Shown here: piece after piece, positions 37,642 through 46,686 of the stretch
How positions within the stretch are numbered: the stretch's first letter is position 1
How the letters are laid out: each line of letters opens with the position of its first letter
From: a virus
Lineage: Duplodnaviria > Heunggongvirae > Uroviricota > Caudoviricetes
IMG/VR virus record: IMGVR_UViG_2778261229_000001
Coordinates: 1 to 46,686 of that record
DNA length: 46,686 nt
Direction: 5' to 3' (one strand)
Position numbers and translations under genes: made by a program
The notes under the pieces: generated by a model
The model's database searches: none
What the model was told of the DNA's origin: nothing
The model's input: the letters and a program-made list of their open reading frames with translations, nothing else

Positions 37642-41043
<3,402 letters not shown>

Positions 41044-41109: not shown

Positions 41110-41709
41110 ATGCGTAAAGTTTGTGCAGCCATTTTGTCCGCAGCCATCTGTCTGGTCGTATCCGGTGCGCCTGCATGGGCGTCTGAACATCAGTCCACGC
41201 TGAGCGCGGGGTATCTTCATGCCTCGACGAACGTTCCCGGCAGCGATGATCTTAACGGGATTAACGTGAAATACCGTTATGAGTTTACGGACACGCTGGG
41301 GATGGTGACGTCATTCAGCTATGCAGAAGACAAGAATCGCCAGCTGACTCATTACAGCGATACCCGCTGGCATGAAGATTCCGTGCGTAACCGCTGGTTC
41401 AGCGTGATGGCGGGGCCGTCTGTGCGCATGAATGAATGGTTCAGCGCGTATGCGATGGCGGGTGTGGCTTACAGCCGTATTTCGACTTTCTCCGGGGATT
41501 ATCTCCGCGTAACTGACAACAAGGGGAAAACGCACGAAGTGCTGACCGGAAGTGATGACGGTCGCCGCAGCAACACGTCTCTGGCGTGGGGGGCTGGCGT
41601 GCAGTTTAACCCGACCGAATCCGTGGCCATTGATATTGCTTATGAAGGCTCCGGCAGTGGCGACTGGCGCACTGACGGTTTCATCGTGGGTGTCGGTTAT
41701 AAGTTCTGA
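41110..41709 (+). CDS. lom: Lom outer-membrane protein (Ail/Lom family)
   Basis: 199-aa with signal peptide, closely matching lambda Lom. Confidence 0.9.
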   Translation: MRKVCAAILSAAICLVVSGAPAWASEHQSTLSAGYLHASTNVPGSDDLNGINVKYRYEFTDTLGMVTSFSYAEDKNRQLTHYSDTRWHEDSVRNRWFSVMAGPSVRMNEWFSAYAMAGVAYSRISTFSGDYLRVTDNKGKTHEVLTGSDDGRRSNTSLAWGAGVQFNPTESVAIDIAYEGSGSGDWRTDGFIVGVGYKF

Positions 41710-41767
41710 TTAGCCAGGTAACACAGTGTTATGACAGCCCGCCGGTTCAGGCGGGCTTTTTTGTGGG

Positions 41768-44700
41768 GTGAATATGGCAGTAAAGATTTCAGGTGTACTG
41801 AAAGACGGTGCAGGTAAACCGGTACAGAACTGCACAATCCAGCTGAAAGCAAAACGTAACAGCACCACGGTGGTGGTGAACACGGTGGCATCTGAAAATC
41901 CGGATGAAGCAGGGCGTTACAGCATGGACGTTGAGTACGGTCAGTACAGCGTTATTCTGTTGGTGGAAGGCTTCCCGCCATCGCATGCCGGGATCATCAC
42001 CGTGTATGAAGACTCACAACCGGGTACGCTGAATGATTTTCTCGGTGCCATGACGGAGGATGATGCCCGTCCGGAGGCACTGCGCCGCTTTGAACTGATG
42101 GTGGAAGAGGTGGCGCGTAACGCGTCCGCAGTGGAACAGAACACGGCAGCCGCGAAGAAGTCAGCCAGCGATGCCGGCACATCAGCCCGTGAGGCGGCAA
42201 CCCATGCGACTGATGCTGCAGGCTCAGCACGTGCAGCCAGCACATCAGCCGGGCAGGCCGCGACGTCGGCTCAGTCAGCGTCTTCCAGCGCAGGAACGGC
42301 ATCAACAAAGGCTACTGAAGCATCAAAAAGTGCTGCCGCTGCAGAGTCCTCAAAAAGCGCGGCGGCTACCAGTGCCGGTGCGGCGAAAACGTCAGAAACG
42401 AATGCTGCAGCGTCACAAAAATCTGCAGCCACTTCTGCATCCACCGCGACCACGAAAGCGTCAGAAGCTGCCACCTCAGCCCGGGATGCGGCGGCCTCAA
42501 AAGAGGCAGCGAAATCATCAGAAACGAGCGCAGCCTCGAGCGCCAGTAGTGCAGCCTCTTCGGCAACGGCGGCAGGAAATTCCGCGAAGGCCGCAAAAAC
42601 GTCTGAGACGAATGCGGATAACAGCGCACAGGCGGCAGCAGACTCACAAACTGCATCAGCAAACTCCGCGACAGCAGTCAAAAAATCAGAAACCAACGCG
42701 AAAAATAGCGAGGCAGCAGCAAAGAGCAGCGAAACCAACGCTAAAGCCAGCGAAACTAATGCTAAATCCAGTGAAACAAACGCGGCGAAATCTGCGGCGG
42801 ACGCACTTAATTATCGCAACCAGGCCCAGGGTATTGTTGGTACTAACATCGGTTTGGGATCATCACCGCGTGATTGCTCTGACATCTCAGGAAATCCATC
42901 AGGTTATATTGGCTTTATGCGCATCATGGAAAATGCCACGGGTTTTCCTTCGATTGCATCGGGTGAGGGTAATTTAACTGGCTTTATAAGTCAGGTTGAC
43001 GGATCGCCAGCTTATACAGGTATTTTCCAGGGGTGGAACACCAGATCCATTTACACCTATCGCTGGTTAACTAGTATAGGCCCGCAATGGACACGCCACG
43101 CTCGCAAAGATGAAGTCAGTCGATTATTTCAAAACGAATCGACGACTCGTATATATGGCCCAACTAACGATCGTTTCTTTGAAATCCATACTAACGGGAG
43201 TTGGGGGGTTTATGATTCTTCTTCTGGACAATGGTCTCCGTTAGGTTTAGCCCAGGGCGGTACTGGTGGAAGAACTATCGAGCAAGCACGTGCGAACTTG
43301 CGGGTAATGTATGAGCAAAAAGCTGGTCTTGCTAATACTGACCTAAACACCCTTACCGGTGAATATTCTGGTTTCTATCAACAACCAGCGAGCGCTTACG
43401 CAACAGAAGAATTAAATTACCCAATCGGTCTGGCGGGCGCTTTAATAGTGCTCCAAACGAGAGCCAACACTGCTTCTTCCTGCGTTCAGGTGTACTACCC
43501 TTATAATAATCCGGGAATTACTTATAGACGAATATATGAAGGAGGTAGCGGTACCTGGTCTGAATGGAAGAGAGATGTATCAACAGAAAGGGTTGAAGAG
43601 GGAAAAGAAACAACTTACGTATATTCTACGTATTCTTCAGGCGCACCACGCTTACAGGTTTCCAAATCTGGTTTGTGGGGTTGTCATAATGGCACTGGCT
43701 GGTTGCCATTAGCTGTTGGGCAAGGAGGTACAGGTGCGACAACAGTAGAAGATGCGCGAAACAACTTAAGTCTTGGCGAAAGTAGCGCAGTTAAATTTAA
43801 AAACCTTACTTTAACCGAAGCGCTCGACACGACATTAGGACTGCTTACAAAAACAGGACGAGACTGGAACACGCAGCATACTGATAACATTAATAAATTT
43901 ATACCAATTGCAGGCAGTACAAACGGCCCGGCAGGTTCTATGGTTCTTGGCGGCATTCATGTTCAATTTAGTAAAAATTATGCTGTGCAGTTCGGAGGCC
44001 GCAATTCCGGTTTTTGGGGAAGAACAGTTGAAAACGGAACGACGCAGGAATGGAAGAAATTACTAACAGTAGACGATCTAAATTCATCCACCGATCTTGC
44101 TGTCAGGTCATTAACCACATCTAACCCGTTAAAATCTGGCGGAGGGCGGATTGATGTCCTTGGAAGCACGTCAGACTATAGCAAAATGGATTGCTTTGTA
44201 CGTGGGTTTGATAGCACCGGTAATTCTCTCGCGTGGGCGTTGGGTTCATCAGTCGGCGTAAGTAAGATGCTGTCGCTAAAAAATTTCTTTAGCGGAGCTG
44301 AGATACTGCTAAATGGTAATGACGGCGCGGTTCAACTCAAAACAGGTGCTGTTAACGGGGCTAAAGCGCAGGCGCTCACTATCAACAAGGATGAGGTTAA
44401 CTCAACTGTTGATTTAGCTCTTACAAAACAAACAGGGACTGGCAATCGTTTTGTTTTACAGAACTTAGGTAATACAGAACTATCATTTGCTGTCAAGGTG
44501 TGGGGTTCAGGTGATCGACAAAACGTTTTTGAGGTTGGAACGTCTGCCGCGTATCTGTTTTATGCTCAAAAAACATCGTCAGGTCAGCTGTTTGATGTAA
44601 ACGGTGCTATTAACTGTACAACACTGAATCAGTTATCAGACCGCGAGCTGAAAGACAATATTCAGATTATCAGTGACGCAACCGAAGCTATCCGTAAAAT

Positions 44701-45070
44701 GAACGGGTACACCTACACACTTAAGGAAAACGGACTACCTTACGCTGGTGTTATTGCACAGGAAGCAATGGAGGCAATACCGGAAGCGGTAGGCTCATTC
44801 ACTCATTACGGTAAAGAGTTGCAGGGACCAACGGTTGACGGCAATGAATTACGTGAAGAAACACGTTATCTGAATGTTGACTACGCCGCCGTGACTGGCT
44901 TACTTATTCAGGTCGCCCGTGAAACAGATGATCGCGTTACCGCGCTGGAAGAGGAAAATACAACGTTACGTGAAAATCTGGCAACAGCAGGCACCCGGAT
45001 CACCACTCTGGAAAATCAGGTAAGCGAACTGGTTGCACTTGTCCGGCAGTTAACAGAAAGCGAACATTGA
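41768..45070 (+). CDS. stf: Side tail fibre protein with Ala/Ser-rich repeat shaft and C-terminal S74-type intramolecular chaperone domain
   Basis: 1100-aa; N-terminal about 330 aa matches lambda Stf; C-terminal SDRELKDNIQ...YLNVDYAAVTGLLIQ resembles the self-cleaving chaperone of endosialidase-type fibres. Confidence 0.85.
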   Translation: MNMAVKISGVLKDGAGKPVQNCTIQLKAKRNSTTVVVNTVASENPDEAGRYSMDVEYGQYSVILLVEGFPPSHAGIITVYEDSQPGTLNDFLGAMTEDDARPEALRRFELMVEEVARNASAVEQNTAAAKKSASDAGTSAREAATHATDAAGSARAASTSAGQAATSAQSASSSAGTASTKATEASKSAAAAESSKSAAATSAGAAKTSETNAAASQKSAATSASTATTKASEAATSARDAAASKEAAKSSETSAASSASSAASSATAAGNSAKAAKTSETNADNSAQAAADSQTASANSATAVKKSETNAKNSEAAAKSSETNAKASETNAKSSETNAAKSAADALNYRNQAQGIVGTNIGLGSSPRDCSDISGNPSGYIGFMRIMENATGFPSIASGEGNLTGFISQVDGSPAYTGIFQGWNTRSIYTYRWLTSIGPQWTRHARKDEVSRLFQNESTTRIYGPTNDRFFEIHTNGSWGVYDSSSGQWSPLGLAQGGTGGRTIEQARANLRVMYEQKAGLANTDLNTLTGEYSGFYQQPASAYATEELNYPIGLAGALIVLQTRANTASSCVQVYYPYNNPGITYRRIYEGGSGTWSEWKRDVSTERVEEGKETTYVYSTYSSGAPRLQVSKSGLWGCHNGTGWLPLAVGQGGTGATTVEDARNNLSLGESSAVKFKNLTLTEALDTTLGLLTKTGRDWNTQHTDNINKFIPIAGSTNGPAGSMVLGGIHVQFSKNYAVQFGGRNSGFWGRTVENGTTQEWKKLLTVDDLNSSTDLAVRSLTTSNPLKSGGGRIDVLGSTSDYSKMDCFVRGFDSTGNSLAWALGSSVGVSKMLSLKNFFSGAEILLNGNDGAVQLKTGAVNGAKAQALTINKDEVNSTVDLALTKQTGTGNRFVLQNLGNTELSFAVKVWGSGDRQNVFEVGTSAAYLFYAQKTSSGQLFDVNGAINCTTLNQLSDRELKDNIQIISDATEAIRKMNGYTYTLKENGLPYAGVIAQEAMEAIPEAVGSFTHYGKELQGPTVDGNELREETRYLNVDYAAVTGLLIQVARETDDRVTALEEENTTLRENLATAGTRITTLENQVSELVALVRQLTESEH

Positions 45071-46074
45071 TATCCTTCAAGCCCTGAAGGAGGCTGTTCC
45101 TGGTACGTTCAGACTGTTGTTGAGCTGGAAATCGCAACGGAGGAAGAAACTTCGTTGCTGGAAGTCTGGAAAAAGTATCGGGTGTTGCTGAACCGCGTTG
45201 ATACATCAACTGCACCTGATGTTGATTGGCCAGCAGCACCGAAGTGTAATTCATTAGAACTCATCACCTGTGAATAATATCTGTTTTTGAGTAAGTTAGT
45301 AATAATCACTTAAATGTGTTATAAGTTTGTTAAGGCGTGATTTGCAATAGGATAGAGAGTACGATTTTGGATTGAGAATAAGAAAGCGCCATGAAAGAGT
45401 TTCATGGCGAGTACATAAACGTACAAAATATGATGAAAGTAGAGTGGCGTAAACCACTATATTAAGATATTACAATAGCGAAGAAACGTAAATAACATTT
45501 TATGGGCGTTTAATTGTTAATTATAAAAACTAGAGTGCCCGATATTATTTATCTTGCTTTAAAATAATGTACTCAAACCGAATTTTTGATCTAAAAGCTC
45601 AAATAGTATAAATGCAATGATAATGTTTAATAAGACAATCAGCTTGCTTTGTATTTTCATTTCGGAATACTGTTAAGTAACTTTAATAATCCTAACAATA
45701 GATCGGATTTTTCTTAGAGTCAATGGTCCCCGTTTTTGCTTGCAAAGCAAATGTTTTGGTAGTTATAAGTTGTCTTGATATAGTCATGCATGCAACTTGT
45801 TCCGTGAAGAGATTAAAGATTGGAATATAACGCGAAAATTGCTCATAGTTCACCAATACAGCTATAAATCGTAAAGAGAACCGTGGCTCGTTGTATGCAA
45901 AAACGTGCCACGGTTGGCTGATGCACTTTCGAGAGTGCATGTATTGAATTATTTCCAGCTATTATCGATTTTACGTATTTTTTGCATGATAGAATTCGTA
46001 CCTCCTCCCAACGACCTTCCATGACTTTCCGGACTGCTATAGGCTGGCGGACGATGATGTCCTCGGATGTTGTG

Positions 46075-46686
46075 CTAATTGGGTGATAACAGATCCTGTG
46101 TATGGGAGTTTCCCTTTTTGCGTGCGTTGATGCTGGTAACGGCAAACGTCATGATGAACAAAACCGCGAATAAGACGACAATCGTCGGAGCTGGTGCGCT
46201 GTCGATAAAAAAGGACAACCAGACACCAGTCATTGACACTATTACCGATATGCCAGTCGCCAGTAGGAGCGCAATATGAAAGCGTTGTGTCAGGAGTACC
46301 GCAATGGCGCCAGGCGCAATGAGCAGAGAAATGGAGAGAATGATACCTACCGCTTTCAGCGTCGCCACAATGGTCAGAGAGACCATGCACAGCAGCCCAT
46401 AATGCAGCCATCTCGTATGCAAACCGCTTACCTGCGCCTGTTGATAATCAAAGCTGAACAGCAAAAAATCTCGCCATTTTACGCTAATAACAAGTGTAAC
46501 CAGCCCAGCAATAATCACCGTCTGGATTATATCGCCGATGGTTATCCCGAGCATGTCGCCGAAAAGAATATGGTCAAGATGTACGTCTGGTTTGACTGCA
46601 ATATACAAAATCAGACCTGCGGCAAACATGCCAGAAAAAACAATCCCCATCACTGTATCTTGCTTGATTCGGCTGTTGTCTTTCAG
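46075..46686 (-). CDS. ABC-type metal transporter permease (ZnuB/SitD-like), partial - N-terminus beyond window edge
   Basis: Polytopic hydrophobic ORF; reading frame stays open through 46686; likely host chromosomal gene. Confidence 0.45.
   Translation of the reverse strand: MKDNSRIKQDTVMGIVFSGMFAAGLILYIAVKPDVHLDHILFGDMLGITIGDIIQTVIIAGLVTLVISVKWRDFLLFSFDYQQAQVSGLHTRWLHYGLLCMVSLTIVATLKAVGIILSISLLIAPGAIAVLLTQRFHIALLLATGISVIVSMTGVWLSFFIDSAPAPTIVVLFAVLFIMTFAVTSINARKKGNSHTQDLLSPN

Follow-up and report, generated by a model that had tools for sequence, protein, structure and literature searches.

A lambda-type side tail fibre gene with a predicted S74 chaperone end and a tfa remnant in a lambdoid prophage

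The side tail fibre (Stf) of phage lambda depends on a second protein, Tfa, for its assembly. The lambdoid prophage analysed here (IMG/VR record IMGVR_UViG_2778261229_000001, positions 1 to 46,686, this whole stretch of 46,686 nucleotides being referred to below as the window) carries an stf gene of lambda type but no intact tfa. A preliminary description of the sequence had proposed that the distal domain had been exchanged for one ending in a self-cleaving chaperone, with consequences for host range and for the need of Tfa. The data presented below make it very probable that the gene encodes a mosaic Stf whose S74 tail trimerises, templates the folding of the tip and cuts itself off between Leu956 and Ser957, leaving a mature fibre that would not need Tfa.

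The C-terminal chaperone and the organisation of the fibre

Sequence comparisons support the assignment of the Stf C-terminus to the Peptidase S74 intramolecular chaperones, as it combines a profile score above threshold, a Ser residue with a Lys at +5, an extreme C-terminal position with a helical end and homology to solved domains of this type. The Pfam profile PF13884 (Peptidase_S74) aligns with residues 957-1008 (residues are counted throughout from the GTG at 41768) over positions 1-57 of its 58, with an E-value of 2.2e-13 and a score of 50.7 bits for a gathering score of 22. The S74 likeness that the preliminary description had noted in two C-terminal strings, located here at residues 956-990 and 1034-1046, is borne out by this match above the curated threshold. 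When residues 940-1100 were compared to 1.84 billion cluster representatives, 4532 clusters were found to carry the domain at E <= 0.001, nearly always at the extreme C-terminus of the proteins. Within the query and 132 representatives having less than 50% pairwise identity, Lys962 and Gly994 are invariant (133/133) while Ser957 and Asp958 occur in 132 and 131 sequences, respectively; the Ser957/Asp958/Lys962 motif is also kept in all or nearly all of 27 closer homologues. A profile constructed from 20 diverse chaperone segments further retrieved from the PDB the gp37 protein of phage S16 (6F45, E 1.4e-19), the self-cleaving domain of MyRF (7DC3, 7.5e-13), a putative tail fibre (8JOV, 3.4e-10), the neck appendage chaperone of GA-1 (3GUD, 2.1e-5) and the T5 lateral fibre pb1 (8HQZ, 4.6e-4). 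The chain of 3GUD starts with SDERHK and its first Ser aligns with Ser957. In T5 pb1, the cut takes place between Thr1263 and Ser1264, the latter being activated by Lys1269. Cleavage requires that the trimer be correctly folded and is blocked by the S1264A substitution (PMC4690869). The spacing of Ser957 and Lys962 is the same as that of this pair. Upstream Arg/Asp residues have also been described as a 'folding sensor' in T5 pb1. Finally, the AlphaFold2 (AF2) model displays one long helix at about residues 1039-1096 (residues 694-751 of the distal part), with a predicted local distance difference test (pLDDT) score of 50-72, and weak matches to coiled-coil Pfam families occur at 1057-1098; this helix fits the coiled coil of S74-type chaperone domains.

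From the N- to the C-terminus, the fibre is composed of a lambda-type docking domain, an Ala/Ser heptad shaft, two pyocin-like knob units, a conserved tip and a chaperone of 144 residues. According to the scheme proposed here, the N-terminal domain would dock the fibre on the tail tip, and three chaperone domains would assemble into a trimer via their coiled coil and serve as a template on which the upstream tip folds. Once the trimer is correct, Ser957 activated by Lys962 would cut the bond that precedes it, and departure of the 16-kDa chaperone would leave a mature fibre of about 954-956 residues. Since the folding help would be part of the fibre itself, a separate Tfa would become dispensable.

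Such an arrangement has several counterparts among characterised fibres. Like Stf, T5 pb1 is a siphovirus lateral fibre; its C-terminal chaperone is of comparable size (about 133-144 residues) and has a coiled coil and a Ser/Lys(+5) pair, the cut falling just before the Ser, as is predicted for Stf. It differs in that the similarity is at the profile level only, in its N-terminal attachment and in its bullet-shaped receptor domain, which is not detectably related to the tip found here. The endosialidase gp17 of phage K1F belongs to the same Pfam family and carries the prototype S74 chaperone, which undergoes trimer-dependent self-cleavage via a Ser/Lys pair; it is however an enzymatic tailspike (sialidase), and no enzymatic domain was detected in Stf with Pfam or NCBIfam. 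An engineered fusion of lambda Stf(1-528) with K1F gp17 works on lambda particles, indicating that the lambda Stf N-terminus can carry a foreign C-terminal receptor module (PMC11338833).

The middle of the fibre comprises a tandem duplication, residues 356-520 (unit A) and 516-675 (unit B), that is supported by a Smith-Waterman z of 13.2 against shuffles, and both copies end in the motif QGGTG..AR.NL. Sequence similarity to a solved R-type pyocin knob was found for unit B, of which residues 527-672 match the R1 pyocin fibre (PDB 6CL5) with an E-value of 8.6e-6 in phmmer. In contrast to Stf, no chaperone domain was seen in the matched chains of R-type pyocin fibres (6CL5, 6CL6), and the structural match is only moderate; in pyocins, the chaperone of the fibre is encoded by a gene of its own and is not an S74 domain. 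A third knob suggested by eye at residues 676-780 was not supported by alignment statistics and was not retained.

The tip that follows is weakly similar to the C-terminal region of T4 gp34 (phmmer to 4UXE/5NXF, E about 0.01), and the monomer AF2 model predicts beta-strands throughout residues 706-956 with pLDDT values of about 25-35. Compared to the query, 27 homologues, which were picked by overall score with a possible bias, show 82-96% identity per 30-residue block over the tip and chaperone (706-1065), mostly at least 89%, versus 55-77% over the knob region (406-705), unit B being the most variable part. In many relatives, about 226 additional alignment columns form a block inserted after residue 689. 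As judged from these alignments, the family is made of a conserved tip-plus-chaperone block associated with a variable middle. At the nucleotide coordinates of the window, the region near the chaperone (43883-45067) is conserved at ca. 90% while the proximal knobs (42980-43880) vary and have undergone large insertions; a conserved tip combined with a variable mid-fibre is the reverse of the 'variable tip' pattern usual in phage fibres.

Limits of the exchanged module and the tfa remnant

On the left side, the similarity to lambda covers the attachment domain and ends within the shaft. The PF08400 (phage_tail_N) match lies above the curated cut-off (Table 1), the first 94 residues hardly differ from those of the lambda Stf chain in PDB 9e7m, and the N-terminal part of lambda Stf, orf-401, has 75.7% identity to residues 3-345. 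No meaningful alignment was obtained with orf-314, which forms the distal part of Stf in lambda. At the nucleotide level, the identity to lambda (86.5%) ends at position 42614, and most lambdoid stf genes cease to match after 845 nt. The Ala/Ser-rich shaft that surrounds this limit displays periodic repeats of 21 nt, corresponding to 7 residues. The GC content, which is 0.59-0.63 over 41900-42650, is 0.44-0.48 from about 42650-42950 onward, placing the drop (from about 0.60 to 0.45) near residues 300-370. These values agree with the preliminary description, which had recognised a lambda Stf-like N-terminus of about 330 residues with an Ala/Ser shaft and, from about residue 360, a sequence of lower GC content with no kinship to lambda Stf.

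The gene thus shares with that of lambda (Ur-lambda) the docking domain, the shaft and the locus directly after J and lom, but the two differ in their distal part: in lambda, orf-314 is followed by an intact tfa, whereas here the fibre has an S74 end and tfa is cut to 45 codons. By its predicted attachment and its position the protein is an Stf but, having no significant distal match to orf-314 and only a tfa remnant, it falls outside the class with Tfa-dependent distal parts. In two other Escherichia coli genomes, a J fragment is fused to the distal part of stf, namely J 1-206 to stf 283-1100 (P0067) and J 792-1107 to stf 279-1100 (P0021). Both fusions join at about stf residue 280, where the nucleotide similarity of lambdoid stf genes ends (845 nt); they are probably deletion products of decaying prophages, yet they mark a recurrent junction.

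On the right side, the stf frame stays open for 68 codons beyond the TGA. A hairpin (CCTTCA-AGCCC-TGAAGG) directly follows the stop codon and, 36 nt after the TGA and in the stf frame, positions 45107-45241 encode the last 45 residues of a Tfa. This remnant matches only positions 87-131 of the 131 in the Caudo_TAP profile (PF02413), with an E-value of 4.1e-19, and is 78% identical in protein and 88% in nucleotide sequence to the part of lambda Tfa spanning residues 147-191. Neither a start codon nor the N-terminal part is present, in contrast to a full-length Tfa, which has ca. 190 residues and spans the whole profile. A tblastn search of the 46.7-kb window with lambda Tfa returned the remnant as its only match, so that the earlier statement that no tfa-like open reading frame (ORF) follows holds for an intact gene but overlooked these 45 codons. 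RefSeq lists the corresponding stretch of two other genomes, one being that of strain A36, as a pseudogene of tfa that lacks the N-terminal part. From its sequence, the remnant is a pseudogene scar of a displaced Tfa-dependent module. The incoming cassette would have displaced most of tfa along with the distal end that relied on Tfa, leaving the last ca. 45 codons of the gene behind.

The truncated 3' end of tfa directly supports a module swap and constitutes the best single evidence for it. Together with the arrest of lambda similarity in the Ala/Ser shaft, it upholds the distal exchange put forward in the preliminary description. We infer from the sequence that the exchange involved a receptor-binding part and that it may have altered host range. 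The junction was compared in five loci only (the window, mEp460, Ayreon, A36 and FDAARGOS_1058), and in these it is identical, the remnant beginning 36 nt after the stop and in frame, while its 3' end differs among them. As mEp460 and Ayreon have an identical scar, the junction seems to have arisen once in an ancestor and to have been disseminated thereafter with the cassette. Between the window and mEp460, 157 of the 160 positions of the remnant are identical, compared to 393/432 for the last 432 nt of stf, which encode the chaperone. Gene conversion with intact tfa genes might account for this conservation of the scar, as might a function as a recombination arm.

Competing explanations

Several points weigh against the proposed reading. 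The AF2 model of the tip and S74 core is of low confidence (mean pLDDT 38), which leaves the fold of the supposedly chaperoned tip tentative. Independence from Tfa is suggested by the lack of an intact tfa in the prophage and by the same arrangement in the isolated phages mEp460 and Ayreon. However, lambda can form plaques in the laboratory without Stf, as in the case of lambda PaPa, which has none (PMC11990801), and the fact that mEp460 and Ayreon are viable is thus no proof that their fibres assemble. In principle, a Tfa provided by another prophage of the same cell could also act in trans. The searchable literature yielded no experiment on this protein or on a close relative. Cleavage itself is a sequence-based prediction and, considering also the low confidence of the modelled S74 core, the domain might stay on the mature fibre as a trimerisation or folding module, or be an inactive relic. 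This is improbable, since the catalytic Ser and Lys are intact, as is the flanking motif, and are invariant across the family. In K1F, GA-1 and phi29, which represent characterised members having the Ser/Lys pair, the S74 domain is released. The same is true of T5 pb1 (PMC4690869). A further alternative retains cleavage but transfers receptor binding to another protein, the tip being capped by a separate small adhesin resembling gp38, as in S16 or T2. In this respect, S16 gp37, which is part of the gp37-gp38 complex solved in 6F45, is the best structural match of the C-terminus and, among solved sequences, the nearest to the chaperone and the strands before it (E 7.6e-5 with a single sequence), fibres ending in S74 may use a gp38-like adhesin (RBPseg atlas, PMC12143355), and the tip beside the chaperone is unusually conserved (about 90% or more) while receptor-binding tips usually vary. 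S16 is however a T4-like myovirus of Salmonella, and there is no adhesin-type ORF between 45071 and sitD nor an adhesin-like gene after stf in mEp460 and Ayreon. A two-part tip is therefore very unlikely, and this model was rejected for want of a downstream gene.

That the gene is intact but its fibre has no role, either because the prophage is not inducible or because the fibre is not mounted, so that stf would be a mere passenger by recent descent, may be considered since related copies in E. coli are often split, interrupted by insertion sequences (IS) or fused to J. This is quite unlikely here because the ORF and the prophage are complete: 1098 codons are uninterrupted, int, xis, the repressor, O/P, Q and the lysis, terminase, head and tail genes have been kept, and the docking domain is almost the same as in lambda. 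As for the tfa remnant, its position in the stf frame, invariably 36 nt beyond the stop in the five loci, and its conservation in excess of that of the adjacent chaperone coding sequence could be taken to mean that it still assists assembly, as an extension made by UGA read-through or as a small peptide. We consider this extremely improbable: the N-terminal two thirds of the Caudo_TAP profile are missing, the shared frame reflects one inherited junction rather than repeated selection, the 3' end varies freely between loci, RefSeq treats the stretch as a pseudogene, an extension would sit on a discarded domain, and the conservation can be explained by recombination with intact tfa genes of other prophages. 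A different role for the scar is conceivable, although we hold it only tentatively, namely that the remnant and its 36-nt linker act as a portable right-hand homology arm. Equally tentatively, specificity in this family may reside in the variable mid-fibre knobs and not in the conserved tip. Intact tfa genes of other prophages are ca. 88-93% identical to the remnant stretch, and chaperone-type and Tfa-type distal cassettes could thus be swapped by homologous recombination. If true, a homology-arm role would explain why the remnant has been retained at the same junction in 14% of complete E. coli genomes, and why it is more conserved than the adjacent coding sequence.

The stf locus, its distribution and its significance

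The stf gene is a single intact ORF that spans 41768..45070 on the + strand and encodes 1100 residues when counted from the GTG. While the ORF given in the preliminary description is confirmed, its start is not: the GTG at 41768, which lies right against the T-run following the lom terminator hairpin (41736-41757), was dropped, and translation most likely starts at the ATG at 41774 (MAVKISG...), yielding a product of 1098 residues. This ATG is directly preceded by GGGG(TGA), a candidate ribosome-binding site, RefSeq places the start at the same codon in strain A36, whose gene is 99.4% identical, and MAVKISG also opens the chain of lambda Stf resolved in PDB 9e7m. A terminator is annotated at the matching position in mEp460 and Ayreon. 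PHROG 6578 ('tail fiber protein') matches Stf almost end to end, and no informative NCBIfam match was obtained for the fibre or for the tfa remnant. The location of the features is summarised in Table 1.

Table 1. Features of the stf locus, with positions given in the window
Feature	Position	Strand	Evidence or remark
lom terminator hairpin (41736-41757, T-run after) and GGGG(TGA), likely stf ribosome-binding site	41736..41773	+	Terminator scan, sequence
stf gene, preferred ATG start	41774..45070	+	1098 codons then TGA; GTG at 41768 would add 2 codons
N-terminal virion-attachment domain, lambda Stf type, residues 3-136	41774..42175	+	PF08400 E 4.2e-71; PDB 9e7m E 5e-51
Ala/Ser-rich shaft, 7-residue (21-nt) periodicity, lambda-like; holds the left recombination boundary	42140..42802	+	Lambda comparison, repeat analysis
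Knob unit A, residues 356-520, beta-sandwich knob and connector ending QGGTG..AR.NL	42833..43327	+	
Knob unit B, residues 516-675, duplicate of unit A, R-type-pyocin-fibre-like	43313..43792	+	phmmer to PDB 6CL5
Conserved distal tip, residues 706-956, presumed beta-structured and trimeric	43883..44635	+	Alignment of relatives; phmmer; AF2 of low confidence
Predicted cleavage and catalytic motif S957-D-R-E-L-K962, with predicted scissile bond Leu956-Ser957	44636..44653	+	Conservation, 3GUD alignment, T5 pb1 mechanism
C-terminal intramolecular chaperone, residues 957-1100, 144 residues; S74 core 957-1008; helix/coiled coil ca. 1039-1096	44636..45067	+	
Open in-frame stretch: 36-nt linker (with hairpin) and tfa 3' remnant 45107-45241	45071..45277	+	

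The window corresponds to a complete lambdoid prophage that extends from the int stop codon to within sitD. Upstream of stf are J (37645-41043, 1132 residues) and lom (41110-41709, 199 residues); downstream, the tfa scar is followed by ca. 800 bp of AT-rich non-coding DNA (45280-46075, 30-37% GC) and by sitD on the opposite strand. In strain A36, the near-identical locus (NZ_CP028739.1, 3104000-3153500) is a prophage located between icd and sitABCD, and it also possesses iss, whose product is a bor-like lipoprotein for serum survival, and a TonB-family gene near the lysis cassette. The window further encodes, in the interval separating the replication genes from Q, an inverse autotransporter of 1302 residues resembling intimin and invasin, with an IAT_beta domain and Big_1/Invasin_D3 repeats (11176-15084, +), and, convergent to it, an alpha/beta hydrolase (15121-16164, -). 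RefSeq annotates the same pair in A36, and these are likely cargo genes for adhesion.

At a coverage of at least 80%, the entire gene occurs in 90 of 5426 complete E. coli genomes, three of which reach at least 99% identity, and a 421-nt stretch made of the 3' end of the chaperone sequence and the tfa scar occurs in 783 (14%). Many of the related E. coli copies are split, IS-interrupted or fused to J fragments, indicating a frequent decay of this locus. Related genes also occur in the phages mEp460 (AFM76057), Ayreon (ATP61598) and PhiR70_1, which share the position after J and lom, the PF08400 N-terminus and the tip and chaperone. In mEp460 and Ayreon the gene order is J-lom-stf-scar, with no tfa annotated after stf, and the last 1.1-1.4 kb has 83-90% nucleotide identity to that of the window; their fibres are however 100-150 residues longer and differ in the middle. 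In E. coli FDAARGOS_1058 (NZ_CP065970.1, 929-5063), an S74-type stf and its tfa scar adjoin the invertase gene pinQ in a Qin-like prophage, which is the usual site of invertible fibre segments of Tfa type.

RefSeq names the product 'prophage tail fiber N-terminal domain and S74 family endopeptidase-containing protein' and its fragments 'pyocin knob domain-containing S74 family peptidase'. The architecture is thus already known at the level of databases and annotation and is common in E. coli prophages, although no explicit description of natural lambdoid side fibres with an intramolecular chaperone was found in the literature, and the papers found on mEp460 do not discuss its fibre. Being widespread, named in RefSeq and present in sequenced phages, it carries little weight as a discovery. 

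For annotation purposes, these data suggest treating the fibre as complete in spite of the missing tfa, with a predicted mature length of about 954-956 residues. The locus further provides a natural example in which the N-terminus of lambda Stf is combined with a distal module that would be self-chaperoning, a type of fusion already exploited by engineers to retarget lambda-derived particles. Its natural junctions, the tfa scar on the right and the Ala/Ser shaft at about residues 280-345 on the left, could guide the choice of sites at which such swaps are tolerated.

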